Part shown: positions 7,820-62,344 of the stretch, one piece after another | Position numbering within the stretch: the stretch's first letter is position 1 | Layout: every line of letters starts with the position of its first letter | Assembly: GCA_963848965.1 (NCBI GenBank) | Contig: CAWKFG010000001.1 | Coordinates: 224,001 to 288,000 of the forward strand | From: an uncultured bacterium | Lineage (GTDB): Bacteria > Babelota > Babeliae > Babelales > Babelaceae | DNA length: 64,000 nucleotides | Direction of reading: 5' to 3' | The notes under the pieces: model-generated | What the model was told of the DNA's origin: nothing | Database searches by the model: none | Seen by the model: only the letters and a program-made list of their open reading frames with translations | Program-made: the position numbers and the translations under genes

Positions 7820-8179
7820 ATGAAGAAATGTCTTATTATGGCTCTAGCTTTAGGAATGGCAGCACCTCTTTTTTCAATGGAACCTGGTCAATCTGGAGTT
7901 TCAAATCCTTTCCGTATAGAACGAGCAAAAAAAAGAGCTATGCTAGAAGCTACAAGGCAACAGCTTATGGCTGTTATTCAGCAGTTGGAAGGTAACCTCA
8001 AAGCACAGCAAGTTCAGACAGTTTTTGGAAGACCAAGACCTGATCTTACTGCTCTACAAACGCAGGTAGCAGTTCTTAGACAACAGCTTGCTGGTGTCGA
8101 AAAAGAGCTTGTTGCTTTAACACAACAAGGCCCTGGTCTAGCTCGTGGACAGCAACAACGTACACAAAGCACTCGATAA
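7820..8179 (+). CDS. Hypothetical secreted Gln-rich coiled-coil protein
   Basis: AAGGAG RBS, signal peptide ending PLFS-ME, heptad Leu/Gln pattern. Confidence 0.75.
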   Translation: MKKCLIMALALGMAAPLFSMEPGQSGVSNPFRIERAKKRAMLEATRQQLMAVIQQLEGNLKAQQVQTVFGRPRPDLTALQTQVAVLRQQLAGVEKELVALTQQGPGLARGQQQRTQSTR

Positions 8180-8185
8180 AAAGAT

Positions 8186-8216
8186 AAAATCCTGGTCCTA
8201 AAAGCCAGGATTTTTT
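8186..8216 (+). terminator. Intrinsic terminator
   Basis: AAAATCCTGG/CCAGGATTTT stem followed by T run. Confidence 0.7.
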
Positions 8217-8368
8217 CGTGCTCTTTTAGTTTTGTTACCTTTATTATTTTACTAGAGCATAAATAGTTTTTGTTGGCACCCAAGAAATTTTTATTCCAAT
8301 TTGAAATTGTTGAAAATAGTTCTCTACTTATACTATACTAGAATATGAATACAGTAAGGGGGTAGATT

Positions 8369-9032: not shown

Positions 9033-9098
9033 TTAAGTATGAGTACGTATATGCGCTCTTAAATTACTAGAAGAGGTAAAGGCTTTATCACATTCATT
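9033..9098 (-). pseudogene. Relic 3' end of a C2H2 zinc-finger gene
   Basis: Minus strand reads [21 protein letters not shown], followed by the same TAAGCAAGAAG 3' flank as intact array genes; out of frame with the upstream ORF. Confidence 0.75.
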
Positions 9099-9954
9099 AA
9101 GCTTGAGGACAGCGGTGCTTATCTAAGTATAGTTGTGCAGAAAAAGTTCTTTTACATTGTTTACATGTAGCTGTCTTTTGCTTTTCATGAGTAGTTTTAT
9201 GCGCTGCTAAATTAGCCGGATTAATGAACTTTTTATCACATTGGACACAGAGGTGCTGTGCTTCTTCTTTCTTATGTAGTGCTGGTTTGTTCTTGATCAG
9301 AATCTCAACCTCCATACTTTCTGAATCTTCATCTGTAAAAGAGGAATCTTCTCTGTCATTTAAATAATAGTCCTCATCGTCTGAAGAGTCGTACTTCTGC
9401 TTTTTCAATGGTCTGGCCTGCTGTACTTTTTTTAATGCCGCCTTATCCTTTGAATTAGTGCTAATCTGTGTGTCTTCTTTGTGAGGATTGTTAGGAATCC
9501 TACGTTTCTGATCTACCGCTTTAGCTAGCTTTTTGCTTGCTTTACTTGTAGAATTCTCGTTGTTTTGCTGACTTCTTACATTGCCTAGTGTTGATACCAT
9601 CCTCTTTACTAATAACATAGGAGACGGTGTTACAGAAGCTGTTAAGTTATTTTGTTTGTAATAGCTGTTATCGCCTTGAGATAGCGGCTGCTCTTGAAAA
9701 TCAGTTGTATATGATTCTTCTTCTGTCTCACTATCCGCGTGCTGCATGTTTTCTTTTTCTTCTGCGTGAAGGATGGTGATGTGTAATTCTAGATCTTCTT
9801 TTTGCGTAAATTGTAAAGAACATTGCTCACATGCGTATGCTAGCTCTTGATTACTCACTAAATCCTTTTGTCCTTCTGAGCATTGTTCCATTCCATAGAG
9901 AGTGGTTACTGTACCCCAGAGCAAAAGCATTACAATCTTATTCATAATTTCCAA
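9097..9954 (-). CDS. Secreted protein with three dispersed C2H2/C2HC zinc fingers and basic and acidic tracts
   Basis: Signal peptide ending LYG-ME; fingers CEQC..HITILH, CVQC..HKTTH, CKQC..HRC; PLKKQK basic patch; DSSDDED acidic tract. Confidence 0.85.
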   Translation of the reverse strand: MEIMNKIVMLLLWGTVTTLYGMEQCSEGQKDLVSNQELAYACEQCSLQFTQKEDLELHITILHAEEKENMQHADSETEEESYTTDFQEQPLSQGDNSYYKQNNLTASVTPSPMLLVKRMVSTLGNVRSQQNNENSTSKASKKLAKAVDQKRRIPNNPHKEDTQISTNSKDKAALKKVQQARPLKKQKYDSSDDEDYYLNDREDSSFTDEDSESMEVEILIKNKPALHKKEEAQHLCVQCDKKFINPANLAAHKTTHEKQKTATCKQCKRTFSAQLYLDKHRCPQA

Positions 9955-10092
9955 TTAATTTTAAAAGTACTTTTACTAGTACAATAGAGTTCTTATCATT
10001 CATATCATTATACTATAGCCTATGATTTTAATTATAATTTGTCAATAATAAAAGTATTGGGACATCAGCTACGCAGAGCATTAAGCCGTATT

Positions 10093-10797
10093 TTACGTGT
10101 TATGAACTTTTTGATGTATTGTTAATTGACCAGAAGTAATGAAGGTTTTACTGCACTCAGTACATACATATGGTTTTTCTCCTGTATGAGTACGTATGTG
10201 CCTTGTTAAAGTACTGGAATCAGCAAAAGTTTTATCGCATTCATTACATACATATGGCTTTATACCAGTATGAGTACGCATATGTATTGTTAATTGGTCA
10301 GACTGAGTAAAAGCTTTATGACATTCAGTACAAACATAGGGTCTTTCTTCGGTATGAGTACGTACGTGTTTTGTTAAGTCACTAGCAGTAGTAAAAGCTT
10401 TGTCGCATTCAGTACAGACATAAGGCTTTTCACCAGTATGACTACGCATATGTGATGTTAAACTATCAGTTCGAGCAAAAGCTTTATGACATTCATTACA
10501 AACATAGGGTCTTTCTCCAGTATGAGTGTATATATGCCTTGTTAACTTGCTAGAAGTAGCGAAAGTTTTACCACATTCAATACATATATGCTCTTTTTTT
10601 TGTCTCTTATGATTAACAGCAGAGTCAACATCATTTTGAGAAGCGTGAAGACGTTTTCTAGAGAGAATAGGTGTGTCATCAGATATGTCTTCTAGTGCTG
10701 TATCTGGTTGTTGAGTGTTATTAGTACCTCTATCTTCTTGCATAGAATAAATAAAATGAGAAAATAAGCAGAGTAAGAATAAAGAGAGCGTTTTCAT
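10093..10797 (-). CDS. Secreted Krueppel-type C2H2 zinc-finger protein, 6 fingers
   Basis: Signal peptide, RKR-x14-KRQKK, six 28-aa CxxC-x12-HxxxH units with TGEKP-type linkers. Confidence 0.95.
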   Translation of the reverse strand: MKTLSLFLLCLFSHFIYSMQEDRGTNNTQQPDTALEDISDDTPILSRKRLHASQNDVDSAVNHKRQKKEHICIECGKTFATSSKLTRHIYTHTGERPYVCNECHKAFARTDSLTSHMRSHTGEKPYVCTECDKAFTTASDLTKHVRTHTEERPYVCTECHKAFTQSDQLTIHMRTHTGIKPYVCNECDKTFADSSTLTRHIRTHTGEKPYVCTECSKTFITSGQLTIHQKVHNT

Positions 10798-10900
10798 TGG
10801 ATACCTAATGTTTTATTAGAAAACTTATTGTTTAGGTCTTTAAATATAATTATATAGCTTGAAAATAAAAGTGCAAGTAAGAGCACTCAAAGCTTCTTGC
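10798..10900 (-). repeat. Repeated ~103 bp intergenic promoter/RBS cassette of the ZF array, copy 1
   Basis: Near-identical to 11519-11621 and 16792-16894. Confidence 0.9.
10849..10876 (-). promoter_or_regulatory. sigma70-like promoter TTGCAC-N16-TATAAT
   Basis: Read on the minus strand; conserved or nearly so in the other cassette copies (e.g. 11570-11597). Confidence 0.65.
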
Positions 10901-11518
10901 TTAAGTATGAGTATGCATGTGCCTTGTTAACTTACTAGATTCAGCAAAAGCTTTATCACATTCGTTACATACATAAGGCTTTTCACCAGTATGAGTACGC
11001 ATATGTAATGTTAAACTATCAGCTCGAGTAAAAGCTTTATCACATTCAGTACAAACATAGGGTCTTTCTCCGGTATGAGTACGCATATGTTTTGTTAAAG
11101 TACTAGAATTGGTAAAAGCTTTATCACATTTAGTACATATATACGGCTTTTCTCCTGTATGTGTTAGTATATGTTGTGTTAAATTACCAGATTTAGTAAA
11201 AGCTTTATTACATTCACTACATACATACGGTCTTTCTCCGGTATGTGTTAGTATATGTACTGTTAAACTACTAGAATTGGTAAAAGCTTTATCACATTCA
11301 ATACATATATGCTCTTTTTTTTGTCTCTTATGAATAACTGCGGAGTCAACATCATTTTGAGAAGCGTAAGGGCGTTTTCTAGAGAGAATAGGCGCGTCAT
11401 CAGATATGTCTTCTGTTGCTGTATCTGGTTGTTGAGTGTTATTAGTACCTCTATCTTCTTGCATAGAATAAATAAAATGAGAAAATAAGCAGAGTAAGAA
11501 TAAAGAGAGCGTTTTCAT
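10901..11518 (-). CDS. Secreted Krueppel-type C2H2 zinc-finger protein, 5 fingers
   Basis: Leader nearly identical to the 10093 gene; five tandem fingers. Confidence 0.95.
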
Positions 11519-11621
11519 TGGATACCTAATGTTTTATTAGAAAACTTATTGTTTAGGTCTTTAAATATAATTATATAACTTGAAAATAAAAGTGCAAGTA
11601 AGAGCATTCAAAGCTTCTTGC
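11519..11621 (-). repeat. ZF-array intergenic cassette, copy 2
   Basis: Near-identical to 10798-10900. Confidence 0.9.
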
Positions 11622-12827: not shown

Positions 12828-12830
12828 CAA

Positions 12831-12930
12831 AGACCTACCATCTTATTGGGAAATTTTTTGAGCAAATATTTAAATATAATTATATAAATTGAAAATAAAA
12901 TTGCAAGTAAGAGCATCCAAGACTTCTTGC
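12831..12930 (-). repeat. ZF-array intergenic cassette, variant copy
   Basis: Shares the AAATATAATTATA..GAAAATAAAA..TGCAAGTAAGAGCA..CTTCTTGC core (plus strand); closest to 15822-15921. Confidence 0.85.
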
Positions 12931-13734
12931 TTAAGTATGAGTACGCATATGCCTTGTTAAATTACTAGAAGTTGTGAAAGCGTTATCACACTCGGTGCAC
13001 TTATAGGGCCTTTCTCGTGTGTGACTATACATATGTGCTATTAAGTGGCTAGAAGTAGTAAAAGCTCTATTGCATTCATTACATACATACGGCTTTTCTC
13101 CTGTATGTGTTAGTATATGCTTTGCTAAGTTACTAGACTCTGCAAAAGTTTTACCACACTCGTTACATACATACGGCTTCTCACCCGTATGAGTACGCAT
13201 ATGTATTGTTAATTTACCAGATTGTGCAAAAGCTTTATCGCATTCATTACATTTATAAGGTTTTTCTCTTGTATGCGTACGTATATGCTTTGTTAAATCG
13301 CCAGATTCAGCAAAAGCTTTGTTACATTCAGTACATATATATGGCTTTTCGCCTGTATGACCGCGCATATGTAATGTTAAAGAACTAGACTGAGTAAAAG
13401 CTTTATTGCATTCAGGACATATATAGGGCTTTTCTCCTGTATGAGTACGCATATGTACTGTTAAATTTCTAGAGGTTGTAAAAGCTTTATCACATTCATT
13501 ACACTTAAAGGGCCTTTCCCCTGTATGCGTACGCATATGTATCGCCAACTTACTAGGAACACTAAAAGCCTTATTACATTCAACACATATATGTCGTAGC
13601 TTACTTCTTTTATGTCCTCTTTCTTCTTGAGACTCTATCTCACTCTCTTCTCTTTCTCTTTTTGTAGTCTCTCTTTCCATTGCATTGAGCAGACTTACTA
13701 TGAAAAAAAGAGTAAATATCACTATTTTTCTCAT
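12931..13734 (-). CDS. Secreted Krueppel-type C2H2 zinc-finger protein, 8 fingers, distinct leader
   Basis: Signal peptide ending LNA-ME; KR..HKRSK basic clusters; eight fingers. Confidence 0.95.
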
Positions 13735-13825
13735 ATATTATTCCTTATTATAATATGTAAGGTATCATTAGACTTATGGCAGCATTCCTCACATAGAGCT
13801 TTATACAAAGGTAAGCCTAGAATTA

Positions 13826-14542: not shown

Positions 14543-14664
14543 GGTATATCCTAGATAAATGATTCTATTTAATATATTCTCTATATTACATTTTAATGAT
14601 AATTTGTCAATAATATTAATGGTTAAAGGTATGCTGACGCAAAGCAAATAAAGTAGTGCCCTAC

Positions 14665-15032: not shown

Positions 15033-15818
15033 TCATGTATGAGTATGCATGTGCCTTGTTAAATTACCAGATTGTGCAAAGGCTTTATTGCATTCACTAC
15101 AAACATAAGGTTTTTCACCACTATGGGTACGTATGTGTTGTGTTAAAGTACTGGAATCGGCAAAGAATTTATTGCACTCAGTACATACGTATGGTTTTTC
15201 ACCAGTATGAGTACGTACGTGTTTTGTTAATTTACCAGCAGTGGTAAAAGCTTTGTCGCATTCAGTACATACATAAGGCTTTATACCAGTATGAGTACGC
15301 ATATGTTTTGTTAATTGGCCAGACTCGGCAAAAGCTTTGTTGCATTCAGTACATGCATAAGTCTTTTCACCGGTATGACTACGCATATGTGATGTTAAAC
15401 TATCAGTTCGAGCAAAAGCTTTATCACATTCAGTACATACATAAGGCTTTATACCAGTATGAGTATGTACGTGTTTTGTTAAGTCACCAGCACTAGTAAA
15501 AGCTTTGTTGCATTCAGTACATACATAAGGCTTTTCACCGGTATGACTACGCATATGTCGTGTTAAACTATCAGAACGGGTAAAAAGTTTATCACATTCA
15601 GTGCAGGCATATTCTTTTTTCTGTTTCTTTTGATTAACCGGAGATTCGATATCATTGTGAGCAGAATAAAGCCGTTTTTTAGGTAATATGGGTATCTCAT
15701 CAGATAGGTCTTCTGTAATAGACTTATCTTGTTGAGCCTCATTGGCGCTAATAGCTTCTTGCATAGAGTAAGCAAAAGGAAAGAATAAGCAAAGTAAAAA
15801 TAAAGAAAACGTTTTCAT
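15033..15818 (-). CDS. Secreted Krueppel-type C2H2 zinc-finger protein, 7 fingers
   Basis: ATG at 15818; signal peptide, KKR..KKQKK, seven fingers; ends at a TGA where the linker Gly codon is expected. Confidence 0.95.
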   Translation of the reverse strand: MKTFSLFLLCLFFPFAYSMQEAISANEAQQDKSITEDLSDEIPILPKKRLYSAHNDIESPVNQKKQKKEYACTECDKLFTRSDSLTRHMRSHTGEKPYVCTECNKAFTSAGDLTKHVHTHTGIKPYVCTECDKAFARTDSLTSHMRSHTGEKTYACTECNKAFAESGQLTKHMRTHTGIKPYVCTECDKAFTTAGKLTKHVRTHTGEKPYVCTECNKFFADSSTLTQHIRTHSGEKPYVCSECNKAFAQSGNLTRHMHTHT

Positions 15819-15821
15819 CAA

Positions 15822-15921: not shown

Positions 15922-16791
15922 TTAAGTATGAGTACGCATGTGCTTTGTTAAACCACTGGAATCGGCAAAAGCTTTACCGCATTCACTACATATATAAGGT
16001 TTTTCACCAGTATGAGTACGCATATGTACTGTTAATTTACTAGAGGTGCTAAAAGCTTTATCACATTCAGTACAGACATAAGGCTTTTCACCAGTATGAG
16101 TGCGCATATGTATTGTTAATTGGTCAGACTGAGTAAAAGCTTTATGACATTCATTACAAACATAGGGTCTTTCTTCGGTATGAGTACGTACGTGTTTTGT
16201 TAAGTCACTAGCAGTAGTAAAAGCTTTGTCGCATTCAGTACATGTATAAGGCTTTTCACCAGTATGAGTACGCATATGTACTGTTAATTTACTAGAGGTG
16301 GTAAAAGCTTTATGACATTCAGTACAAACATAGGGTCTTTCTCCGGTATGGGTACGTACGTGTTGTGTTAATTCGCCAGCAGTAGTAAAAGCTTTGTCGC
16401 ATTCAGTACAGACATAAGGCTTTTCACCAGTATGACTACGCATATGTTTTGTTAAACTATCAGTTCGAGTAAAAGCTTTACTACATTCGTTACATACATA
16501 AGGCTTTTCACCAGTATGAGTGTATATATGCCTTGTTAACTTGCTAGAAGTAGCGAAAGTTTTACCACATTCAATACATATATGCTCTTTTTTTTGTCTC
16601 TTATGATTAACAGCAGAGTCAACATCATTTTGAGAAGCGTGAAGACGTTTTCTAGAGAGAATAGGTGTGTCATCAGATATGTCTTCTAGTGCTGTATCTG
16701 GTTGTTGAGTGTTATTAGTACCTTTATCTTCTTGCATAGAATAAATAAAATGAGAAAATAAGCAAAGTAAGAATAAAGAGAGCGTTTTCAT
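15922..16791 (-). CDS. Secreted Krueppel-type C2H2 zinc-finger protein, 8 fingers
   Basis: Leader and first finger almost identical to the 10093 gene; eight fingers. Confidence 0.95.
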
Positions 16792-16894: not shown

Positions 16895-17848
16895 TTAAGT
16901 ATGAGTACGCATATGCCGTGTTAATTTGCTAGACTCAGCAAAAGCTTTATAACATTCATTACATATATATGGTTTTTCGCCTGTATGACTATGCATATGT
17001 TTTGTTAAAGTACTTGAATCGGCAAAGAATTTATTGCATTCATTACAAACATAAGGTTTTTCACCAGTATGAGTACGCATATGTACTGTTAATTTACTAG
17101 AGGTGGTAAAAGCTTTGCTACATTCATTACAGACGTATGGCTTTTCATCAGTATGAGTACGAATATGTACTATTAATTTACTAGAGGTGGTAAAAGCTTT
17201 ATCACATTCAGTACATGCATAAGGCTTTTCACCAGTATGAGTACGCATGTGTAGTGTTAAATTACCAGCTTGTGCAAAAGCCTTATTACATTCAGCACAA
17301 GTATAAGGCTTTTCACCGGTATGAGTACGCATATGTAATGTTAAAGAACTAGACTGAGTAAAAGCTTTATTGCATTCAGTACATATATAAGGCTTTTCAC
17401 CAGTATGACTACGCATATGTAATGTTAAACTGTCAGCTCGAGCAAAAGCTTTATCACATTCAGTACAAACATAAAACTTTTCACCAGTATGAATACTTAT
17501 ATGTTTTGTTAATTGGCTAGACTGAGTAAAAGCTTTATCACATTCGTTACATACATAAGGTTTTTCACCAGTATGAGTGTATATATGCCTTGTTAACCTG
17601 CTAGAGGTAGCGAAAGCTTTACCACATTCAATACATATGTGCTCTTTTTTCTGTTTCTTTTGATTAACCGGGGATTCGATATCATTGTGAGTAGAATAAA
17701 GCCGTTTTTTAGGTACTATGGGTATCTCATCAGATAGGTCTTCTGTAATAGACTTATCTTGTTGAGCCTCATTTGTGCTAGTAGCTTCTTGCATAGTATA
17801 AGCTAAAGGAAAAAATATGCAAAGTAAGAAAAGAAAGAACATTTTCAT
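16895..17848 (-). CDS. Secreted Krueppel-type C2H2 zinc-finger protein, 9 fingers
   Basis: Start chosen at ATG 17848 (MKMFF) by alignment to paralogues; signal peptide, KKR..KKQKK, nine fingers. Confidence 0.95.
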
Positions 17849-18059
17849 AGTGCCCATTATCATATTAGAAAATTTATTGTGCAAATGCCTGTCTATAATT
17901 ATATAATTTAAAAATAAAAATGCAAATGCGTGGTTTCAAGATGTGTATACTATAAGCAATCAGGTGTAGAAAAAAAGAAAGAATACTTATTCTTGCTATT
18001 TGTTAAAAGATCTTGGGATACTACCTATGTAAAGAGTTCTATTAAAGGGAGAGCTAGCA

Positions 18060-29412: not shown

Positions 29413-30852
29413 TTACTTTATTTCTTCTAATTCCATAGTATGTGGAATACTATAGTTCTTTTCTAGCCATTTACGTGCTTTTTCATGAGTGCTTACATTT
29501 TGAGGAAAGCGGCGAAGAGCTATATCAAGAATCGAGATCATATTTAAGGCTGTTTGTACTTGATAGTCATTTTTAAATGCTTCTAATCGCTGTTTTTTCC
29601 AATCTTTTTGATCTTCCTGTGGTACTGTTGCTTCAGTATCCTCTTCATCTTTTGCTTTTTGTTGTCCTCGTTCTTTGCCATAAAGCTTGGTAAGAAGTTT
29701 CATTTCGGGAGTAGGGGGGTATTTTTGTTCAACAAGAAAGTCTGGAGTAATACCTGTTGAATGCACGCAGCTATCATCGGGCAGATAATACAGACAGGTA
29801 GTGATTTTAAGTGCGCAGTTGTTGCTCATAGGAATAACTTCTTGCACTGAGCCTTTGCCGTAGGTGGTAGTACCTACTAAAAATACATAAGGCGTAATAG
29901 CTCTCTGTTTACCGCTACTTTTTTGAGCATGAACATGGAGTGCTTTTGCAAGAATTTCTGCAGCTGATGCTGTATAGTCATTAACAAGTATAATAAGGAT
30001 AGTATCTTGTGGTAACAATGGTTGTCGTGTTGTATAAAATTGTTCAAGTACCATACGATTGCGATCTTTAGTAGAAGAAACGAGACTGCCTTTTTTAAGA
30101 AAGAGTCCTGCGCATTCAACTGCTGCATGCAGGATGCCGCCTGAGTTATCGCGTAGATCAAGGATAATACCTTTAGGATTTCTTGGCAGGGCTTTTTTAA
30201 GTGCGTTTTCAAGCTGTTGTGCTACTTGTTGACTAAATACAGTAAGAGAGCAGTAAAGTACATTCTGCTTTGGTAAATAGTAAGAGGTAATATGCTCTTC
30301 TTCAATAAGGTCACGCTCTACGGTAATGGTAAGAGCTCCTTTTTTATCACGTAAGATATCAAGCGTTACCGGAGAATACCGTTTATCGCTTTTTAATTTG
30401 TTTATTGCTTCTTCAACAGGCATAGAGCTTACTGGTTTGCCATCAATTGCTATGATTTTGTCGTATTTTTGTAATCCTTGTTTTGCAGCCGGCTTTCCTG
30501 GAATAACATCGAGAACCAGTAAGAATTCGTCTTCTGATCTCTTGGGCCCTAAAATAATACCGATACCAAAAAAGTTTCCTGTTGTTGTTTTGATAAGGCT
30601 CTTATATTCTTGCGGTCCTAGAAAATGAGAATAATCATCCTGATGATGTACAAAAGCATCAAGCAACTTGATCATTGCTTGTTCTACAGGAACAGGAAAA
30701 TAGGATTTATTGTTCACTAAATGAAATACCTCAGCCATTGAGCGAGACCAACGATAAATATCTTCATTAAATGTATTGCGCTCTAATGATTGAAAGTTTT
30801 TTGCATAAAGAGGTATTATTGCAAAAAAAAGAACAAAAATACTGTATTTCAT
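29413..30852 (-). CDS. ctpA: C-terminal processing peptidase (S41, PDZ)
   Basis: Signal peptide; GIGI PDZ; ILDLRDNSGG, TASAAEI, TYGKGSVQ and GITPD motifs. Confidence 0.92.
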   Translation of the reverse strand: MKYSIFVLFFAIIPLYAKNFQSLERNTFNEDIYRWSRSMAEVFHLVNNKSYFPVPVEQAMIKLLDAFVHHQDDYSHFLGPQEYKSLIKTTTGNFFGIGIILGPKRSEDEFLLVLDVIPGKPAAKQGLQKYDKIIAIDGKPVSSMPVEEAINKLKSDKRYSPVTLDILRDKKGALTITVERDLIEEEHITSYYLPKQNVLYCSLTVFSQQVAQQLENALKKALPRNPKGIILDLRDNSGGILHAAVECAGLFLKKGSLVSSTKDRNRMVLEQFYTTRQPLLPQDTILIILVNDYTASAAEILAKALHVHAQKSSGKQRAITPYVFLVGTTTYGKGSVQEVIPMSNNCALKITTCLYYLPDDSCVHSTGITPDFLVEQKYPPTPEMKLLTKLYGKERGQQKAKDEEDTEATVPQEDQKDWKKQRLEAFKNDYQVQTALNMISILDIALRRFPQNVSTHEKARKWLEKNYSIPHTMELEEIK

Positions 30853-36710: not shown

Positions 36711-38360
36711 CTAGAATGTAAGACTTGTTCCAGCTGCAAATGTAGGTGAAGCAGTAACTGGTAATTTACCTTGAGGAACAAGTTTGCCAAGAAGCACTTT
36801 TGCAGCGCCTTCTTGTGCGTCTTTCTCATCTTCATAAGCTACAAGAATGCTGTTTTCATTGCCAAAGAAGGTAAGTCCATAAGGAGTGCCGAAAAGCACA
36901 AGAATAACTTTTTTGCCAAGTGAGGAAACATTCTTAATGAATTCTCTGGTTTCTTGTGCTATGCCATAATCTTGTTGAGCAAATTTATTCATACCAAAAA
37001 GAGCAATTATAGCAGTATCTTTGGTTGTACATTCTGTTTTGATCTGTGAAAGTACCTCTTGTAGTTGGGCTGGAGTTGCTGTATAAAGAGGAAGAGTTCC
37101 ATATGATTGTAGTGCTTGTGCAAATGGGCATGAAGCGTCTTTTTCTATTACTACTGTAAAAAGCTTAGAGGTATCTTTAAGAGGAAGTAGTTGTTGATCA
37201 TTTTTTACCAAAGTAAGAGCTGCATAGTAAAGCTTCTTTTTCAATTCTTGTACTTCTTGTGTATTCAATGTTTGTAGTGCCTCTGAGACGTTAACAAAGC
37301 GATTTTTATGTAATAAGAGCTCTTCTTTTGCTTGTAAGATTTTTAATACTCGAGCATCAAGTTCGTTTTCAGGAAAAGTTTTTTCGTCTAGTGCTTTTTC
37401 AATAAGTGTAACTGTTTGTTGAATATCAACGGGATAAAGAAGAATATGATTGCCTGCAAGTAAAGCCTGAAGCTCTGCTGTTCCCTGGCCAAAATGTTCA
37501 GTAATTGCTTTCATATTGAGAGCGTCGGTAATTACTAATCCCTTAAAACCGAGCTTTTCTTTCAGAAGTTCGGTTATAAGCTTTTTAGAAAGGCTTGAAG
37601 GAAAGGTATTGTCATAAGCAGGAACTTTTAAATGAGCATTCATAACACATTTAACACCATGAGCGATAAGTTGTGTAAAAGGATAAAGTTCTACAGATTC
37701 AAAGCGCTCCTTAGGGTGATTGATGCATGGCAGCCCTAAATGAGAGTCTACTTCAGTATCTCCATGACCAGGAAAGTGCTTAGCACAGGCGTATGTACCT
37801 GCATCTTGTAATCCTTTCATAAAAAGAATGCTTGCTGCAGCTACTTTTGCCTTATCTTCACCAAAAGATCTATCACTAATAACTGGATTTTTAGGATTAT
37901 TGTTAATGTCTGCTACAGGAGCAAAGTTGATATGGATACCGAGTGCTTTACATTGTTTACCCACAATATACCCCATTGTATAGATATTTGCAGGATTAGC
38001 CATAGCTCCTAAAGTGAGATTACGCGGAAAACGAAGAGCATCATCGAGCCGCATGTTAAGGCCCCATTCGCAATCTTGAGCGATAAGCAAAGGAAGCTTG
38101 CTTAATGACTGGTAATGGTTTATTGTTTCTGTTTGTGGCTTTACTGTATTTCTCTGTACTAAAAGTACGCCTCCAACGTGGTATTGTTGTATAAGTGATG
38201 CAGCTTTCTCTTGTTCTTGAGGAGTGACGCCTATCATAAAGAGTTGTGCTATTTTATCTCGACGGGAAAGATTTTTGAGTGTTTCTTCTGCCCAGCCTGC
38301 ACGTGCTGTAAAAGAGAGAAATATGCAGCCAACTAGGCTTACAAGTATACGCTTAGTCAT
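36711..38360 (-). CDS. nagZ: Glycoside hydrolase family 3 (NagZ-like beta-N-acetylglucosaminidase), exported
   Basis: Signal peptide; KHFPGHGDTEVDSH, ITDALNM and PQGKLPV motifs. Confidence 0.88.
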   Translation of the reverse strand: MTKRILVSLVGCIFLSFTARAGWAEETLKNLSRRDKIAQLFMIGVTPQEQEKAASLIQQYHVGGVLLVQRNTVKPQTETINHYQSLSKLPLLIAQDCEWGLNMRLDDALRFPRNLTLGAMANPANIYTMGYIVGKQCKALGIHINFAPVADINNNPKNPVISDRSFGEDKAKVAAASILFMKGLQDAGTYACAKHFPGHGDTEVDSHLGLPCINHPKERFESVELYPFTQLIAHGVKCVMNAHLKVPAYDNTFPSSLSKKLITELLKEKLGFKGLVITDALNMKAITEHFGQGTAELQALLAGNHILLYPVDIQQTVTLIEKALDEKTFPENELDARVLKILQAKEELLLHKNRFVNVSEALQTLNTQEVQELKKKLYYAALTLVKNDQQLLPLKDTSKLFTVVIEKDASCPFAQALQSYGTLPLYTATPAQLQEVLSQIKTECTTKDTAIIALFGMNKFAQQDYGIAQETREFIKNVSSLGKKVILVLFGTPYGLTFFGNENSILVAYEDEKDAQEGAAKVLLGKLVPQGKLPVTASPTFAAGTSLTF

Positions 38361-38514: not shown

Positions 38515-39186
38515 TTATAGGTAAATAAGAGCCTCTCGTATACTAAGAGAAGATAAAACATCTTTATTTTTTGTAACAAATTCTCTTACTGCTGTTGAAT
38601 TAGTTTTTGAATGGTGGCGTAGTGCCCATCCAATAGCTTTTCTTATAAAGAAATCTTTGTGCGAAGCTGAATATTGGCAATAGCGAAAAAGTCGCTCTTC
38701 ATCTGTACCTAATTTCCACTGTAGCTGAAATATAAGAGCAGAGCGTTGAATCCATAAGTAATCATCTTTGATCCACTTGTCCATATGGTTTATAAGATCA
38801 GGATGCCTGCTGATTAAATCACCTATACTGTGAGCAGCTAGTGTATCTACGGTATCCCACCATGATTTTGTCCGAATAAGATATTCAAAAGTGCTCAATG
38901 CAGTGACAGAAAAGAATTTTTTATAGCGTTGAGCAAGCACAAGTGCTGTATACTGAAATTCTCGTTCTTCTAGATGCCAAAGTTCTTTTATAGTACTTAT
39001 AAGCTCTTGCTCATCTGAAGGGCCATACTTTTTAAGAATTGCTTTTTCTAAAAGAGCTCGTTGAGGTTTTGGAATACCAAAGAACAAAAACTGATTCCTC
39101 ATATAAGCTGATTGCTTACGTGCAAGATCAGGATTTTTATGCGAAATAAAAGTGTCCTTAAGTTCTTGGATTATACTAGCTTTCAT
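38515..39186 (-). CDS. alkD: DNA alkylation repair protein (AlkD family)
   Basis: AYMRNQFLFFGI, EREFQY, SWWDTVD, FFIRKAIGWALR; start set at ATG 39186. Confidence 0.88.
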   Translation of the reverse strand: MKASIIQELKDTFISHKNPDLARKQSAYMRNQFLFFGIPKPQRALLEKAILKKYGPSDEQELISTIKELWHLEEREFQYTALVLAQRYKKFFSVTALSTFEYLIRTKSWWDTVDTLAAHSIGDLISRHPDLINHMDKWIKDDYLWIQRSALIFQLQWKLGTDEERLFRYCQYSASHKDFFIRKAIGWALRHHSKTNSTAVREFVTKNKDVLSSLSIREALIYL

Positions 39187-41098
39187 ATTTTCCGCCAAGG
39201 TGCTGTGCTAAAAACTTTTCTGCAGCAGCGTAGAATTTTTGCTTATTATCATATTTTACAAATCCATGACCTTCATCTTCAAAAAGCATATATTCATGTG
39301 GAATATTATGTGCTTTAAGGGCAGCTACAATCTGTTCTGCTTCCTCTTTTGGTACTCGAGGATCTTGTGCTCCTTGAGCAATTAAAAGAGGAATCTTAAT
39401 GTTTTGTACTTTAAAGAGTGGTGAACGATCCTTAAGGAATTGCTTTTCTGTTTGAGGATCTCCTATACACTTATATACTTCATGCAAGTGTAATGCCCAA
39501 TAAGCAGGAGCAGATTTTAAAAAGGTAATTAGATTGCACGGTCCTACAAGGTCTACTGCGCAGCAAAATACATCGGGGGTAAATGTTGCACCTACTAAGG
39601 CTGCATAACCGCCATAAGAAGCTCCATAGATTGCTACTTTCCTAGGATCAGCGATACCACGTTTAACTGCCCATTGTACGGCGTCAACAAGATCGTTATG
39701 CATTTTTCCAGCCCATTCTTTGTTTGCTGCATTAACAAATTGTTTACCGTATCCTGTAGATCCCCGGTAGTTCACTTGAAGTACTGCATATCCTCTATTG
39801 GCAAGCCACTGTACTTCTGCTCGATAGCCCCACGTATCCCGTATCCAAGGACCGCCATGAACAAGCAGTACTAACGGCAAGTTGCGTCGTTCAACACCTG
39901 AAGGGCAGGTCAAATAACCATGAATAGTAAGGCCATCACGAGCTGTGAATGAACAGGGCTCACAAGGAGCAAGTGCATACTTGTTTAATACAGGGCGTAG
40001 ATCAAAAAGGTGTGTAGCTTTATTTTGAGTAGTAGTATACAGATAAAATGCTGCAGATTTTGTATCGTGCTCAATACAGACAATCCACTTTTCTTGTTTA
40101 TCGTCAACGCTTAAGATATAGAGATTTCCTTTATCAATGGAAGTAAGCGCAGACAGTGTTTTTTTAAAGTGTGGATGAAGAGCTTTCCATTCTTCGTACT
40201 CTTTAACAAATGAAACTGCTTCAACTTCCCCTGTATCTGGATTAATATGTACTGAATGTACATCAGACTGAGGATCTTCTGCAAGTACTTCAATCTTTTT
40301 TGTTGCAAGATCCATTTTTACAAGTCTACTTGTATTAGCATCTTTAGAGTCGAACAAGTATAGAAACTTACCATCATGTGAAAATTCTGCAGGGCCACTA
40401 AGTGTGTAATCTTCATGTTCCCATATACGTGCAGTCTCCCAAGCAGATTTTGCGTCTTTACGTACAAGTAGTTTAGTACAGCCATTTTCCATAGGCACCG
40501 TTGCTGCGCGTATTATAAGGTCCTTATCTGCGAGCCAGTCTGAGATAGTACCTGGATTTTTTTCAACGAGATCTAGCTTGCCAGTAGAAAGATCAAGCTT
40601 ATAGACATCATGTACTTGAGGATTATCTTTGTTAAGACCGATAAGAAGAGTTTGTGGGTGAAATTTATTACCGGCAATAATTTTAGCTTGTACTTTCTCA
40701 AAAGGTGTATAACACGTAACTTTGCCATCAGGGATAGTTACTCCATAAAGTTGCCAATTTTCATCTCCGTTACTATCTCGTATATAAAGAATTTTGCTGC
40801 TATCAGGTGCCCAAAAATAGCTTTGTATTGAACGATCTGTTATATTGGTTATAGCTCTGTCATCATTTTTATCAAGGCTTCTTACCCAAATGTTGAGTGC
40901 TGACGTTGCTGAATTTAAAGGAGCAAGATAGCTTATAGAGGTTCCATCAGGAGAAATACGTGCTAATGTTTTAGAGGGGCACCCAAAAAGCACTGTTCGT
41001 GGAATTAACGTGAGTTTAGCTGGAGTAATCATAGTACTGATACCAATACATGCGGCTACTGCAAAAAGTAAAAAAGCAAAGAGAAAGGGTTTTTTCAT
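39176..41098 (-). CDS. S9-family prolyl oligopeptidase/acylaminoacyl peptidase, exported
   Basis: VHGGPW, VNYRGSTGYG, GASYGGY, QGAQDPRV, DEGHG. Confidence 0.93.
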   Translation of the reverse strand: MKKPFLFAFLLFAVAACIGISTMITPAKLTLIPRTVLFGCPSKTLARISPDGTSISYLAPLNSATSALNIWVRSLDKNDDRAITNITDRSIQSYFWAPDSSKILYIRDSNGDENWQLYGVTIPDGKVTCYTPFEKVQAKIIAGNKFHPQTLLIGLNKDNPQVHDVYKLDLSTGKLDLVEKNPGTISDWLADKDLIIRAATVPMENGCTKLLVRKDAKSAWETARIWEHEDYTLSGPAEFSHDGKFLYLFDSKDANTSRLVKMDLATKKIEVLAEDPQSDVHSVHINPDTGEVEAVSFVKEYEEWKALHPHFKKTLSALTSIDKGNLYILSVDDKQEKWIVCIEHDTKSAAFYLYTTTQNKATHLFDLRPVLNKYALAPCEPCSFTARDGLTIHGYLTCPSGVERRNLPLVLLVHGGPWIRDTWGYRAEVQWLANRGYAVLQVNYRGSTGYGKQFVNAANKEWAGKMHNDLVDAVQWAVKRGIADPRKVAIYGASYGGYAALVGATFTPDVFCCAVDLVGPCNLITFLKSAPAYWALHLHEVYKCIGDPQTEKQFLKDRSPLFKVQNIKIPLLIAQGAQDPRVPKEEAEQIVAALKAHNIPHEYMLFEDEGHGFVKYDNKQKFYAAAEKFLAQHLGGKYES

Positions 41099-51185: not shown

Positions 51186-51617
51186 TTACTTTGTGTCGTC
51201 TTCATCTTCATCTGCTGCTGGTGCTGGAGCTGCAGGAGTTCTTGCTGGAACCTGTGCTGCTGAAGCTTTAGTATCGAGTGTTTTTAATTCTTGATCATCT
51301 TCATCAAGATCAAAATCTTCGTCACCTGCAAATTGATCTTGTGCTACAGGAGCTGGGCGAGCAGGAGCTGCTGATAGCTGTGCGCCTGTTTCGTCATATG
51401 CACCTTCTGTATAAGAAGCTTGTGCAGCTGGTTGTTGTTCGTCATAGTAAGCAGAAGGAGCAGGTGCATAAGAAGCGTCTGCAGGAGCAGGAGCTGCAGG
51501 ACAGCAAACAGGTGCAGCTACTGGGTAGCAACAACGACGACGACCGTTATTCATCCAACCACACGCAGGTATAAGCAGCACTAAGCTGAATAATGAAAAG
51601 TAAGAAAGACGTTTCAT
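51186..51617 (-). CDS. Low-complexity Ala/Pro/Asp-rich lipoprotein
   Basis: AAGGAG RBS, lipobox-like LIPAC, paired CC motifs, disordered acidic C-terminus. Confidence 0.7.
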   Translation of the reverse strand: MKRLSYFSLFSLVLLIPACGWMNNGRRRCCYPVAAPVCCPAAPAPADASYAPAPSAYYDEQQPAAQASYTEGAYDETGAQLSAAPARPAPVAQDQFAGDEDFDLDEDDQELKTLDTKASAAQVPARTPAAPAPAADEDEDDTK

Positions 51618-56055: not shown

Positions 56056-56081
56056 TTCCTCACATAAAATAACGAGATATA

Positions 56082-56111
56082 ATCAAGCACGGGGCCTTCC
56101 TTGTGCTTGAT
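56082..56111 (+). terminator. Hairpin between the two NTT genes
   Basis: ATCAAGCAC/GTGCTTGAT stem; no clear T tail. Confidence 0.45.
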
Positions 56112-56128
56112 CTAAAGGACATAGGGGT

Positions 56129-58943: not shown

Positions 58944-59079
58944 GCCTACGCTCCTTCGGGCTATGCCTGGCATCTTGTCCGGCGAAGCTGAAAGCGTAGA
59001 CGGAGGCCGTAAAGGATGGATTTAAATAAGATTGATATTGCTAGCTTAAGCTAAAGCTGGGCTAGCAGACCTAAAAATT

Positions 59080-59161
59080 GGAAGCCTATAAAGGGCAGTT
59101 GCTTAACGTGTCAGGTCCGAAAGGAAGCAGCACAAGTAACCCCGCTCTTGTATAGGCTTCC
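59080..59161 (+). ncRNA. ffs: Signal recognition particle RNA (4.5S, small bacterial type)
   Basis: Conserved TCAGGTCCGAAAGGAAGCAGC motif inside a long hairpin closed by GGAAGCCTATA/TATAGGCTTCC; T run follows. Confidence 0.92.
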
Positions 59162-59353
59162 TTCTTTTTTGTGCACGTCTCGAAGTACCTATAACTTTCA
59201 AGCAGTATCGCTTAGCCTTATTTAAGTCATAGAAGTTAATAAAAAAAAGAATAGGGCAGTGGGTGTCTTAGATCTTAAGCGCAACTAATGTATCTTTGAC
59301 ATAAAATAATAATGCTGTTAAGCTGGAGCAATGGTAAGACTTAAGGAAAATAT

Positions 59354-62344
59354 ATGTTAAAAGTCATAGGGAACCTCGTGCAATTGAGATTTTTGTTTAC
59401 GTTTATACTAGCTGCTACAAGTACTTTTCCACTTTTTAGTATGGAAAAAGTTTTTAATACTTTTAATACTAAAGAAGAGGATCGTCAGCAGACTAGTCAG
59501 GTATATGGTGAGACAGAAGAAGAATATATAGAGAAAATAGAGTCCTATTATAAAAATCTGCCCTCAGATACTCTACTTCAGCGATTCTCGATGTCTTTTT
59601 TTTCTATAACAGAAAAGTTATTGGTATCTGCTATTACTTATAAAATGGCAGAAGCATATTTAAAAGCAACTTTTGAGCCAGTTACTCCTCTTCTTAATAA
59701 ATTTGGAGATTGTACTGCTTTAATGCTTGCATGTCTTATTGGAGATAGGACATTGGTAACTCTTTTTCTTAGTGCAAAAGCTGACGTTAATGGGGCTAAT
59801 AAACTTGGCTGGACAGCTCTTATGCTTGCAGCACGAAAAGGGAACGTAGAGCTGGTAAAACAGCTACTCAATGCAGGAGCAAATAGTAATGTGCAAGTAC
59901 CACACTCAGGTTGGACTGCTTTAAACCTTGCAATAAAAAATGGACACAAAGATGTAGTCGCATTACTTCTTGATAAAGGAGCAGATGTTTCTTTGAGGTC
60001 TTTAGATAGAAAAAGTGCTTTAAACCTTGCTGCACAGTATGGGTACAAAGATATAGTAGAAATGCTTCTTGAAAGAAAAGTACTTTTAGAAACTAAAGAT
60101 GGAGAAGAAGCTACTCCGTTACTGCGAGCTATAGAAAAAGGACATAAAGAAATAGTCTCTTTATTGCTTAACCATGGTGCTAATGTGGATGCTACATGCC
60201 TTATTAAACAAAGAGGTAGCAATACAGCATTGATACTTGCAGCACGAGCTGGTAATGAGCACATAGTTGATTTGTTACTCAAGCGAGGTGTTTTTGTTAA
60301 TGAATGTAATAGCCAAGGGCAAACACCAGCTACATTTGCAGGGCTTACAGGAAATGAAACTATTTTGCAAAGACTCTTAGATGTTGGGTCTTCTACTCAA
60401 GACATTAAAACGCAGGCATTATTGGGAGCTGCTTTCAAAGGTCATAGAGGTATGGTAAGTAGGTTACTCAAGCAAGGAGTTTCTGCTAACATAAAAGCAT
60501 CCGTTAATATAAAAGCTATGAATGAAGATCCTCTTGATGAGGCTTTACTAAGCTGTTTAGAAGAATATAGAGGACATGAGAGTGCTTTAACGCTTGCTGT
60601 ACAGGGTGGACATAAAGATATAGTAATACTACTTCTTGAGGCAGGTGCTGATGTTAACTATAAGAATGAGCATGGTATTACTCCCTTATTAATTGCAATA
60701 AAAAAAGGGGATAGGGATTTAGTAAAATTACTGCTAGGTCGTGGAGCTTCATTGAATATAGAGGCTGATGTAACCACAAAAAAAGACAATAGAGATTTTT
60801 TTGATGAAATGTTTGATGATGCTGATTTAATCCCTTCAGATAGAGCAAAGCGTAGAAATAAGGATCTTCCTGAGGCTTTAAAGGAACAAAAGAATGCTAT
60901 AATGCTTGCTGTACAGAGTGGACATAAAGATATAGTAATATTACTTCTTGATGCGGGTGCTGATGTTAACTATAAAAATGAGCGAGGAGTTACTCCCTTA
61001 TTAGTTGCAATAGAAAGAGGCGATAGAGATTTAGTAAAATTACTGCTAGATCGTGGAGCTTCAGTAAGTATATGCGACAATAAAAAAGCTACAGCTTTTA
61101 TCTACGCAGGTAGAGCAGGACATATAGAGGTATTACAAGACCTTTTAATGTGGTGTGGAGATAAAGGGACAGCTAAAGTTGAGGCTCTATTTGGTGCAAT
61201 TTATGCTCATGATACTTATCTTATAAATACATTACTTAGTATGAAAACAGATGTTACTGCAAAAAACCAAACGGGCTTTACTACATTGCACACAAGTGTA
61301 GAGACGAGATTGGCTAAAGAAACAGTAGCACTTCTTATTGATGCTGGTGCAGATGTTAATGCTCAGGATGATAATGGCTGGACTCCTTTAATGTATGCAG
61401 CTAGTGGTTGCTACCAAGAATTAGTATCATTACTTGTTAATCGCGGAGCTGATTGTAGTATTAAAAATAGCAAGGGTGATACTGCTTTAATAGTAGCTCT
61501 AAAGGGGTGGAAAAGGTTGGATCAGTGTAATAAACATGAAAATCCTACAGAAACGGTTAGGATTCTTCTTGAAAGAGAAACAGATAACCATATTCTAGAA
61601 AAACATAGAGGTTGTATACTTAATCGAAACAGGAACCACGGTCATCAACTTCTTTCATTATTCATTGCAAAAGGTATGATACTTACTCCTTTACCTACAG
61701 AGCAATGGCCACCGGTTCAGCTTTATCAAAGCCATTTTACAGAGGGCGAGTATTACGAAACTCGAGGTGGAGACTCTATAACGATGGATGCTCTTTGGGC
61801 TAAACTGTTATCATTGTTAGTGCAAGAACCCGAGGTAAAAAAGTATTTGTCTGATGCTTGTTCTGTTAATAATGAGATGCTAAAGGGATTAGATCTAATC
61901 TATCGTAGTCCAAGGGGGCATACCCTTCTTATGGTAGCATGCATGCTTGGGCATACCGAAGTTATTAAAGGGCTTAAAGATCATGTAAGTAAAGAATATT
62001 TAAATATTGTGGATGATTATGATTATTGTGCTCTTGATCATGCCTTTAAATTTGGCAAAACTGATGCTGCTATTGCCCTTATAGAAACTTATGGAAACTA
62101 CCTTGATTATTTAAAGCAAGATTCAAATTTATTTGAGATAGCTATAGACCTTGATAGCTTAAAGCTTGTTAATGTACTTTTAAAAGCTGGTCTCAGGCCT
62201 ACTGTTAAGGATTTAGAGTATTCAGCTGCTACAGGGCGTCTATTTATTATGTTTAAATTACTTATTGCTATCTCAAACAATGATCCTTACTTTATTGCTC
62301 ATCCTTATATAAGAAGGTGTTTTAAGAATATTCAACCCTTTTGA
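59354..62344 (+). CDS. Large secreted ankyrin-repeat protein
   Basis: Signal-like N-terminus ending PLFS-ME; many ankyrin repeats (GWTALMLAARKG, GITPLLIA, GWTPLMYAA). Confidence 0.92.
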   Translation: MLKVIGNLVQLRFLFTFILAATSTFPLFSMEKVFNTFNTKEEDRQQTSQVYGETEEEYIEKIESYYKNLPSDTLLQRFSMSFFSITEKLLVSAITYKMAEAYLKATFEPVTPLLNKFGDCTALMLACLIGDRTLVTLFLSAKADVNGANKLGWTALMLAARKGNVELVKQLLNAGANSNVQVPHSGWTALNLAIKNGHKDVVALLLDKGADVSLRSLDRKSALNLAAQYGYKDIVEMLLERKVLLETKDGEEATPLLRAIEKGHKEIVSLLLNHGANVDATCLIKQRGSNTALILAARAGNEHIVDLLLKRGVFVNECNSQGQTPATFAGLTGNETILQRLLDVGSSTQDIKTQALLGAAFKGHRGMVSRLLKQGVSANIKASVNIKAMNEDPLDEALLSCLEEYRGHESALTLAVQGGHKDIVILLLEAGADVNYKNEHGITPLLIAIKKGDRDLVKLLLGRGASLNIEADVTTKKDNRDFFDEMFDDADLIPSDRAKRRNKDLPEALKEQKNAIMLAVQSGHKDIVILLLDAGADVNYKNERGVTPLLVAIERGDRDLVKLLLDRGASVSICDNKKATAFIYAGRAGHIEVLQDLLMWCGDKGTAKVEALFGAIYAHDTYLINTLLSMKTDVTAKNQTGFTTLHTSVETRLAKETVALLIDAGADVNAQDDNGWTPLMYAASGCYQELVSLLVNRGADCSIKNSKGDTALIVALKGWKRLDQCNKHENPTETVRILLERETDNHILEKHRGCILNRNRNHGHQLLSLFIAKGMILTPLPTEQWPPVQLYQSHFTEGEYYETRGGDSITMDALWAKLLSLLVQEPEVKKYLSDACSVNNEMLKGLDLIYRSPRGHTLLMVACMLGHTEVIKGLKDHVSKEYLNIVDDYDYCALDHAFKFGKTDAAIALIETYGNYLDYLKQDSNLFEIAIDLDSLKLVNVLLKAGLRPTVKDLEYSAATGRLFIMFKLLIAISNNDPYFIAHPYIRRCFKNIQPF
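60592..61063 (+). repeat. Internal 160 bp direct duplication in the ankyrin gene
   Basis: 60592-60751 and 60904-61063 are highly similar at the DNA level (offset 312 bp). Confidence 0.85.

Follow-up and report, generated by a model that had tools for sequence, protein, structure and literature searches.

Host-targeting motifs such as RxLR and PEXEL lie behind the signal peptides of eukaryotic pathogens. Of the described systems, the closest in kind to the one reported here is the Q-rule of Bacteroidetes, followed by the motifs behind the effector signal peptides of oomycetes, Plasmodium and powdery mildews. For powdery mildews, a Y/F/WxC motif has been described in effector candidates (PMC2886064). 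Under the Q-rule (Bochtler et al. 2018, PMC5837995), residue +1 of signal peptidase I sites is a Gln that becomes cyclised to pyroglutamate; the rule is described as raising stability (PMC10653852). Among the Dependentiae, signal peptides were reported for 79 of 126 ankyrin proteins of Babela massiliensis, in which type II is the only secretion system (PMC4378268), and for 44% of the coding sequences of Chromulinavorax destructans, with a share of 78% among its ankyrin proteins (PMC6561590); a comparative paper on TM6 gives two gspD copies (PMC4776705). The present analysis concerns a Met found at residue +1 of predicted signal peptide cuts (the junction Met) in an uncultured bacterium of the Babelales. 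The starting point was a stretch of 64,000 nucleotides (i.e. the window, G000:C1:224001-288000) from a 1.73-Mb genome of 37% G+C in five contigs; coordinates without a contig name are window positions. An earlier note on the window had listed putative effectors with such a Met together with comparators, and all 15 cited junctions are present as written in the translations of the open reading frames (ORFs). Among exported proteins, the Met is shown here to be carried almost only by orphans and by proteins whose domains are eukaryote-like or normally cytosolic.

The genome-wide size of the effect was assessed with 1575 non-overlapping, self-called ORFs covering 88.7% of the genome. Signal peptides were called by home-made hydrophobicity and -3/-1 rules rather than by SignalP, scoring an uncharged hydrophobic N-terminal core of 8 residues that was present in 859 of 1512 ORFs of at least 70 amino acids (aa). 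A loose signal-peptide filter was passed by 710 ORFs, an over-inclusive set that holds membrane proteins and some cytosolic false positives. Met stood directly before the first charged residue after the core in 173 of these (24.4%, against a Met background of 1.77%; binomial p = 3e-138, although such p-values overstate independence because many Met-bearing proteins are paralogues). At every other offset in the same set, from -12 to +12, Met made up 0.8-4.9% of residues. A refined call, in which charged residues were allowed in the c-region, yielded 327 ORFs with a junction Met and a 21.5-fold enrichment of Met over background, while every other residue reached at most 8-fold, the highest being Cys (from lipoproteins). 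Extra filters (i.e. a polar residue after the Met and no later membrane segment) left 226-235 ORFs. A strict pattern was also defined (A, G, S, C or T followed by Met and a polar residue near the end of the core) and counted among those signal-peptide-like ORFs that lack later membrane segments; in a 100-kb stretch of E. coli K-12, none of 28 such ORFs had it. The observation is confirmed as real and far larger than first listed, and chance does not explain it.

Alignment of 260 cases on the Met gave a consensus of L/I/V at -3, Y/F/Q at -2 and A/G/S at -1, followed by Met and then mostly by Glu, Gln, Lys or Asp. Position -1 was occupied by A79, G68, S55, C19 and T13 (A/G/S/C/T in 234/260), position -2 chiefly by Y75, F43 and Q29, position -3 by L97, I28, S27, T24, V21, A21 and C16 (L/I/S/T/V/A/C in 234/260) and position +2 by E134, Q33 and K27. 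In 177 of the 260 cases the Met was residue 19-23, equivalent to a signal peptide of 18-22 aa. Counted from the Met, positions -1 and -3 therefore obey the signal peptidase I rule, in support of the earlier placing of the predicted cut directly beside this residue. As L or I is also frequent at -3 of non-Met signal peptides, this feature reflects a local preference of signal peptidase I. Signal peptides of the Met class (235 ORFs) had a mean length of 21.1 aa, an n-region charge of +1.5 and a core of ~14 aa, as compared to 20.9 aa and 1.49 for the length and charge of the non-Met class; differences in hydrophobicity and Ala content were small. A distinct signal-peptide type for the two classes was rejected on the equality of length and charge, and a second, specialised signal peptidase was rejected as the genome contains a single Peptidase_S26 (signal peptidase I) gene (C1:323737-324447). 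Matching signal peptides and a single S26 gene make the same export and cleavage route likely for both classes. Met-class proteins are shown by these sequence features to carry ordinary Sec-type signal peptides, for which the predicted signal peptidase I cut would expose Met at +1.

The distribution of the Met over protein classes was examined by a Pfam run on all 190 signal-peptide-like ORFs lying wholly in the window or in one 20-kb tile of C4:1-400000, of which the refined rule assigned 67 to the junction-Met class and 123 to the class without. The Met was carried by 33 of 37 eukaryote-like exported proteins (ankyrin 19, C2H2 zinc finger 8, WD40 3, LRR 2, RING 1) but by only 2 of 22 classical envelope or periplasmic proteins (Fisher p = 7e-10, inflated by paralogy). 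The proposal that the Met could predict an effector-like repertoire is thus supported, under our own signal-peptide rules. Both envelope cases (a POTRA protein and an S9 peptidase) are doubtful, as is the one Met-bearing polytopic membrane protein (an M50 protease; 12 others lacked the Met), and in all three the Met is followed by a hydrophobic residue. Envelope proteins lacking the Met numbered 20 and comprised BamA, PBP, S41, two S49, GH1, GH3, GH18, esterase, SBP, SurA, PPIase, SpoIID, MreC, PASTA, PGA_cap, SOD, nucleoside hydrolase, Cache and pilin proteins. The absence of the Met from exported housekeeping enzymes, as first remarked in the window, was confirmed for the S41 (CtpA-type) peptidase (PLYA↓KNFQ, with the arrow marking the predicted cut) and the GH3 glycosidase (TARA↓GWAE). 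Cytosolic false positives were all without Met (0 with, 6 without). Three proteins of other families had the Met (AAA, FGase, DUF2935) and 18 lacked it, including glycosyltransferases and methyltransferases of a glycosylation island; proteins with no family were divided into 28 with and 60 without.

Outside this sample, 78 strict non-ankyrin cases were 150 aa or longer, and the 70 of these that lie in the 40 tiles richest in them were submitted to a second Pfam run. Eukaryote-like domains were again frequent (zf-C2H2 6, WD40 3, LRR 2, and TPR, RING, MYND, UCH and DnaJ 1 each). The others were AAA (3), DUF5122 (2) and single matches to PLA2_B, Metallophos, DUF6829, Pyr_redox_2, thioredoxin, Ham1 and His_Phos_1, with no family for 42. 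Ham1, thioredoxin, Pyr_redox_2, His_Phos_1 and PLA2_B are normally cytosolic enzymes, and none of these 70 Met cases was an envelope-biogenesis protein. The near-confinement of the Met to host-like proteins and orphans suggests that it marks the host-directed secretome, amounting to ~230-330 ORFs or 15-21% of the genome.

Some small exported orphans of the non-Met class (e.g. C4:261281-263621 and C4:322460-323637) have a mature start that resembles an ankyrin helix (AIxxxNxxxVxxLL) and falls below the Pfam threshold; if these are ankyrin proteins, the association of Met with fold is slightly weaker than counted. The opposite end of the proteins was also inspected. A C-terminal signal common to the class was rejected, as a C-terminal F/Y/W was present in 14/226 Met-class and 96/1158 other ORFs, i.e. 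no difference. One exported ankyrin subfamily does have a shared C-terminal module, which consists of the last repeat, KLLxL and a tail of the form P/G-x-L/I-F/Y(-K) (e.g. PALFK, SGLFK, PKLY and PHIF) and may be a second functional tail. This module is found at 1-1596, 42936-45155, 48858-51134 and 59354-62344 and in ~15 of 40 listed ankyrin ORFs, and is not general to the Met class.

Relatives in the same order were sampled by tiling 13-200 kb each and analysed with the same script, giving 13 genomes inclusive of the present one; the samples of G044, G013 and G034 were very small and uninformative. The strict pattern was detected in 44/153 signal-peptide-like ORFs of G000, 22/67 of G003 and 10/70 of G010 (all family f1), 21/90 of G021 (f10), 21/92 of G025 (f11), 10/78 of G056 (f5), 7/63 of G055 (f14), 4/57 of G015 (f4), and 2/33 and 1/19 of G027 and G046 (both f12). 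The rule is therefore strong in f1, in f11 and, on non-ankyrin proteins, in f10. It is weak or absent in f4, f5, f12 and f14, although these families too have exported ankyrin proteins. A preference for acidic or amide residues after the Met recurred in G003, G021 and G025. Ankyrin ORFs were identified with a home-made profile built from 40 Pfam Ank_2 matches. G000 contained 165, of which 131 had a signal peptide and a junction Met, representing 131/145 of the exported ones; corresponding values were 17/23 for G003, 9/11 for G025 and 6/12 for G010. Three of the 14 exported ankyrin ORFs of G000 without a call have a Met after P, F or I, and four of 19 more ankyrin ORFs below the hydrophobicity threshold visibly carry the motif.

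The reading tentatively preferred here, on sequence evidence, is that the Met caps the mature protein and would give it an N-terminus proof against the host cytosol. The protein would be exported by Sec, cut by the single LepB before the Met and released to the host, most probably via a type II-like route. It would then reach the host cytosol with a free Met-Glu, Met-Gln or Met-Asp end, and the Met would act on the mature protein by shielding it from host N-degron pathways. Sec export tolerates an acidic or amide-rich early mature region. Information beyond +2 was slight (0.2-0.7 bits per position). Among the 131 ankyrin proteins, which were called regardless of +2, the residue after the Met was L/F/Y/W/I in 3 (background 27.7%) and D/E/N/Q in 93. 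Exposed N-terminal Glu, Asp, Gln, Asn, Lys, Arg and bulky hydrophobic residues constitute Arg/N-degrons, the human proteins ZER1 and ZYG11B target Gly, Ala, Ser, Thr and Cys that stand unmodified at the N-terminus, and Arg/N-degrons do not include Met with a non-bulky residue after it (Varshavsky 2024, PMC11441550). Of the N-terminal residues considered (Val is not among them), only Met followed by a non-hydrophobic residue escapes those pathways. A cap is preferred because the start residues tolerated by Sec are N-degrons, Met followed by a polar residue is spared, hydrophobic residues at +2 are rare and there is little information further on.

Several points weigh against such a cap. Ala, Ser, Gly and Thr are safe in the classical Arg/N-degron pathway, so that a protist pathway against small unmodified N-termini would be required, and the description drawn on for a pathway of this type concerns human enzymes only (PMC11441550). 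The depletion of hydrophobic residues at +2 may just reflect the hydrophilic linker that follows. Among exported ankyrin ORFs of G000 without a call, two have Ile and one has Leu in place of the Met, which would be destabilising ends, and five variants have Pro at -1 (SKP↓MEKE, VAP↓MEDI and others), a residue that suits a cut directly before the Met poorly. Four eukaryote-like proteins of the 190-ORF sample lack the Met (ankyrin 3, UCH 1), as do 2 DnaJ proteins and 1 DSP phosphatase. Exported ankyrin ORFs had the Met in only 1/10 cases in G056, 1/4 in G055, 0/2 in G015, 0/1 in G046 and 0/1 in G021. The occurrence of Met-less exported ankyrins in several related families indicates that the rule is clade-specific and not a general need of the secretion route, and complicates both a sorting tag and a cap.

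According to the sorting alternative, a Met-acidic N-terminus is read in the periplasm as an address for a secretin-based type II-like pathway or for vesicles. This is the strongest of the rivals and, although rather doubtful, is rated only slightly below a cap. Published Dependentiae genomes are reported to have type II as their only secretion system (PMC4378268, PMC4776705). Three tandem secretin genes are present in G000 (C4:764526-774999), and one feature separates host-like from envelope proteins near-completely. A linear tag would simplify the sorting of more than 200 substrates whose folds are unrelated, and restriction to a clade is what would be expected if the tag co-evolved with a receptor in the bacterium. 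A tag explains this restriction and the split between classes at least as well as a cap does. Precedents for sorting by mature N-terminal residues exist for envelope proteins in the +2 rule for lipoproteins and the lipoprotein export signal of Bacteroidetes. To our knowledge, there is no linear signal for type II substrates, which counts against a tag, as does the little information carried by one or two residues. Hydrolases of kinds exported by type II systems elsewhere (GH18, esterase, GH1) lack the Met. No machinery was found that follows the rule: there is the single S26 peptidase, and secretin copy number is 2-3 in genomes with and without the rule, for which reason a third secretin was rejected as its partner. 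The more specific version, in which a linear +1 Met-acidic address would route more than 200 unrelated proteins per genome via the secretin pathway to the host, is judged from the same sequences to be marginally more doubtful still.

A historical by-product, in which the Met is functionless and descends from the old start codon of (often eukaryote-derived) genes or from an ancestral 5' module, was evaluated through paralogy. The mature parts of 228 strict cases formed 91 single-linkage clusters (E < 1e-5), of which 79 were singletons. The largest was an ankyrin family that alone accounts for 106/228 cases, a share that, like the clade-specificity of the rule, favours a by-product. Retaining one member per cluster kept the logo (-1 A/G/S 87%, -3 L/I/V 63%, +2 Glu 57%), so the Met is present in 91 unrelated clusters, and it also occurs in other genera on unrelated proteins. 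Positions flanking the Met in the 106-member cluster were 6-26% pairwise identical, i.e. saturated, whereas the Met itself was kept in the great majority of exported ankyrin ORFs. DNA similarity of the 5' module (80 nucleotides upstream plus the signal peptide) was detected across clusters for 3 pairs, involving 5/228 genes; two cross-cluster groups clearly have a common 5' module, but sharing is rare and shuffling of a signal-peptide cassette was rejected. Constraints of Sec export alone could explain an acidic +2. Set against an origin from start codons, Glu follows the junction Met in 130/228 cases as compared to 15 of 241 Shine-Dalgarno-supported ATG starts of other genes (Lys in 44), and Val or Leu residues left over from GTG or TTG starts are not conspicuous. 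Best matches between G000 and six relatives, with ankyrins left out, were nearly all housekeeping proteins, and the junction-Met calls among them (M/M 4, M/N 10, N/M 15, with M for a call and N for none) look like chance; this orthologue test had little power because true Met-class proteins are lineage-specific. A by-product is accordingly improbable, and the Met is shown to be kept by selection in one clade of the order (sampled families f1, f10 and f11).

A further possibility is dual initiation, with the junction ATG serving as a second start for a signal-less bacterial form or, in the extreme, as the only real start. An A-rich stretch (GAA AAA GAA) after the ATG resembles many real starts, and about half of G000 genes have no recognisable Shine-Dalgarno sequence. 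The Shine-Dalgarno 4-base core (-18 to -4) was, however, found at 1/228 junction ATGs as compared to 114/228 upstream starts of the same genes. Its frequency was 33% at other first starts (n = 468) and 8.3% at control internal ATGs (n = 2577), so that it is rarer at the junction than at random internal ATGs. Folding of 48-nucleotide windows around the ATG (150 sequences per set) gave mean energies of -7.3 kcal/mol for the junction ATG, -6.3 for control internal ATGs and -3.5 for the signal-peptide start. The junction ATG therefore lies in more folded mRNA than the controls (difference to shuffles, p = 2e-5), while the signal-peptide start is unfolded. The upstream segment has full signal-peptide properties and a tight length distribution, and an intrabacterial role for ankyrin, zinc-finger or RING proteins is not plausible. 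On Shine-Dalgarno content and mRNA folding, the check raised earlier on whether this Met is the real start codon came out against, and dual initiation is very improbable. The greater pairing arises from U-rich signal-peptide codons upstream and purine-rich GAA/AAA codons downstream, and would also suppress accidental internal initiation. Two other features of the junction were discarded: a T-rich hexamer only 2-3 nucleotides upstream, considered for a leaderless transcript, is explained by Leu-Tyr/Phe codons, and a context resembling Kozak sequences, with 84% purine at -3 and 64% G at +4, was read as a by-product of the Ala/Gly/Ser (-1) and Glu (+2) codons. No public sequencing runs were listed for window positions 42000-51500. 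Finally, a reading of the hydrophobic segment as an anchor that stays uncleaved or is cut at another site, with the Met at the membrane interface for another reason, is highly unlikely. The Pro variants, charged residues in the c-region of some cases and the use of home-made rules rather than a trained predictor speak for it, but the -1/-3 fit lies exactly in the Met register and segments of 18-22 aa with a ~14-residue core are typical of cleaved signals.

The window contained 25 signal-peptide-like ORFs by our own heuristic, of which 14 had a convincing junction Met and 1 more a chance-looking one (Table 1).

Table 1. N-terminal segments with a junction Met and comparator genes in the window (window positions; the arrow marks the predicted cut)
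Feature	Position	Strand	Junction and remarks
Orphan, 119 aa, no Pfam family	7820..7879	+	19-aa signal peptide; Met codon 7877-7879; AAPLFS↓MEPGQ
C2H2 zinc-finger protein, 285 aa	9889..9954	-	21-aa signal peptide; Met codon 9889-9891; TTLYG↓MEQCS
Zinc-finger array protein	10741..10797	-	18-aa signal peptide; Met codon 10741-10743
Zinc-finger array protein	11462..11518	-	18-aa signal peptide; Met codon 11462-11464
Zinc-finger array protein, 402 aa	12771..12830	-	19-aa signal peptide; Met codon 12771-12773
Zinc-finger array protein	13678..13734	-	18-aa signal peptide; Met codon 13678-13680; LLNA↓MERE
Zinc-finger array protein	15762..15821	-	19-aa signal peptide; Met codon 15762-15764; PFAYS↓MQEAI
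Zinc-finger array protein	16735..16791	-	18-aa signal peptide; Met codon 16735-16737
Zinc-finger array protein	17792..17884	-	N-terminus; Met codon 17792-17794; longest ORF from TTG 17884
LRR protein, 553 aa	27544..27612	-	22-aa signal peptide; Met codon 27544-27546; FHLSA↓MEKDS
S41 (CtpA-type) peptidase, exported, without junction Met	29413..30852	-	IPLYA↓KNFQS
MutS-like protein, 951 aa	31062..31124	+	20-aa signal peptide; Met codon 31122-31124; GDLVA↓MNLPA
GH3 glycosidase, exported, without junction Met	36711..38360	-	FTARA↓GWAEE
S9 prolyl oligopeptidase, rule-scored junction Met	39176..41098	-	GIST↓MITPAK
Ankyrin protein, 739 aa	42936..43001	+	21-aa signal peptide; Met codon 42999-43001; SCTYS↓MKPEE
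Ankyrin protein, 758 aa	48858..48917	+	19-aa signal peptide; Met codon 48915-48917; IPCFS↓MKRDA
Lipoprotein-type signal peptide comparator	51186..51617	-	Lipobox-like LIPA↓C, recognised by eye
Ankyrin protein, 996 aa	59354..59443	+	29-aa N-terminus; Met codon 59441-59443; TFPLFS↓MEKVF

The S9 peptidase was rejected as a member of the Met class, as its Met looks like chance: it is followed by a hydrophobic residue and the homologue in G010 lacks it. A fourth ankyrin gene enters the window from upstream with its start outside, and its junction reads SLVVA↓MKDKA. Six of the zinc-finger genes (those at 10797, 11518, 12830, 15821, 16791 and 17884) have IYS, TYS, AYS or AYT directly before MQE. For the gene at 17884, we infer that a later in-frame ATG (MKMFF..) is the start, which would yield an 18-aa signal peptide. 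The region 9097-17884 of the minus strand is a tandem array of eight exported C2H2 zinc-finger genes with Krüppel-type TGEKPY linkers and at most 12 fingers, and six further exported zf-C2H2 proteins are encoded elsewhere in the genome. The signal peptide is separated from the fingers by a basic stretch (similar to KRQKK) that resembles a nuclear localisation signal, and the combination points to host DNA as a possible target of the array proteins. The array is interrupted by an ORF of 273 aa with no Pfam family (13826-14647, minus strand), in which two His-x-Ser/Thr-like motifs (HISLAY and HLTIGK), as in 2H phosphoesterases, were recognised by eye.

The MutS-like protein at 31062 has an Asp in its c-region and a MutS_V match (1.4e-30) in its C-terminal part. 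It is one of three large signal-peptide-bearing MutS-like paralogues with MutS_V or MutS_III domains (window 31062-33917, C4:85991-89497 and C4:95335-98916). All three have the Met, the Pro at -1 of SKP↓MEKE and VAP↓MEDI belongs to two of them, and export of a MutS relative is odd. Two Fe/Mn superoxide dismutase genes adjoin at 35273-36650, of which the second has an N-terminal hydrophobic segment without a junction Met. At 54628-57604 there are two neighbouring genes of ATP/ADP translocase (TLC) type, the second recognised by eye, which fits an energy parasite. Outside the window, the gyrB match of another relative (G002, C1:1244758-1247177) was split with 8 TGA and 2 TAG codons in frame, and may represent a decaying gene or another genetic code.

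A +1 rule that is selective for host-directed proteins in a protist-parasitic bacterium is new to the literature covered. Dependentiae are reported to export hundreds of host-like proteins, though only Sec and type II have been found, and the rule addresses how such proteins may be sorted or survive. A one-residue rule is a cheap predictor of the effector repertoire in this clade, inclusive of ~100 or more orphans per genome, and names a concrete residue to mutate; clades with and without it form a natural comparison for partner machinery or a host factor. If a cap is the true function, the rule would mean that a bacterial secretome has adapted, genome-wide, to the N-degron pathways of eukaryotes. 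If a sorting tag is, it would give type II-like systems their first linear secretion signal and would provide, from sequence, a key to the effector sets of an uncultured clade.

The gene content of G000 fits the Dependentiae, and the secretomes of Babela and Chromulinavorax match the biology described here. The papers on these two describe neither the +1 Met rule nor the class specificity that it shows. The word methionine does not occur in the article texts, as distinct from the supplementary tables, of PMC4378268, PMC6561590 and PMC4776705, and searches of openly accessible main texts brought up nothing on a Met behind the signal peptides of this group. The N-termini also invite comparison with substrates of the acetyltransferase NatB, which acts on nascent chains and recognises Met followed by Asp, Glu, Asn or Gln. 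NatB-type ends were present in 175/228 strict cases (E130, Q32, D8, N5) and in 93 of the 131 ankyrin cases. Unlike NatB substrates, the exported proteins would arrive fully made, and Lys at +2 (25/228) is not a NatB context. As NatB acts during synthesis, a further assumption would be needed for an imported protein to be acetylated; the word NatB is absent from PMC11441550.

The first residues of a mature lipoprotein can decide its envelope sorting. Like the lipobox (L-(A/S)-(G/A)-C), the Met junction has Leu at -3 and, at -1, a small residue, but it differs in having Met rather than a lipid-modified Cys at +1. Cys-type sites form a separate, smaller class (8-fold enriched), so that Met-class proteins are not of the lipoprotein type, and true lipobox proteins stand apart (e.g. 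the comparator in Table 1). As with RxLR, PEXEL and Y/F/WxC, a short motif after a classical signal peptide is common to effector candidates that are otherwise unrelated and allows a list of them to be drawn up; unlike these eukaryotic motifs, which lie a few to tens of residues past the cut, the mark is bacterial and is the +1 residue itself. The closest likeness is to the Q-rule. The words methionine, TM6 and Dependentiae are absent from the paper describing it (PMC5837995). Both are lineage-specific, proteome-wide +1 residues at signal peptidase I sites that are thought to act on the mature protein. The residue is Met and not Gln (Gln occupied the scored position in 58/710 ORFs as compared to 173/710 for Met, which sets this genome apart from the Q-rule), no modifying enzyme is implied and only part of the order is affected. 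Whereas the Q-rule covers most signal peptidase I substrates, the Met rule splits the exported proteome and spares the housekeeping proteins of the envelope.

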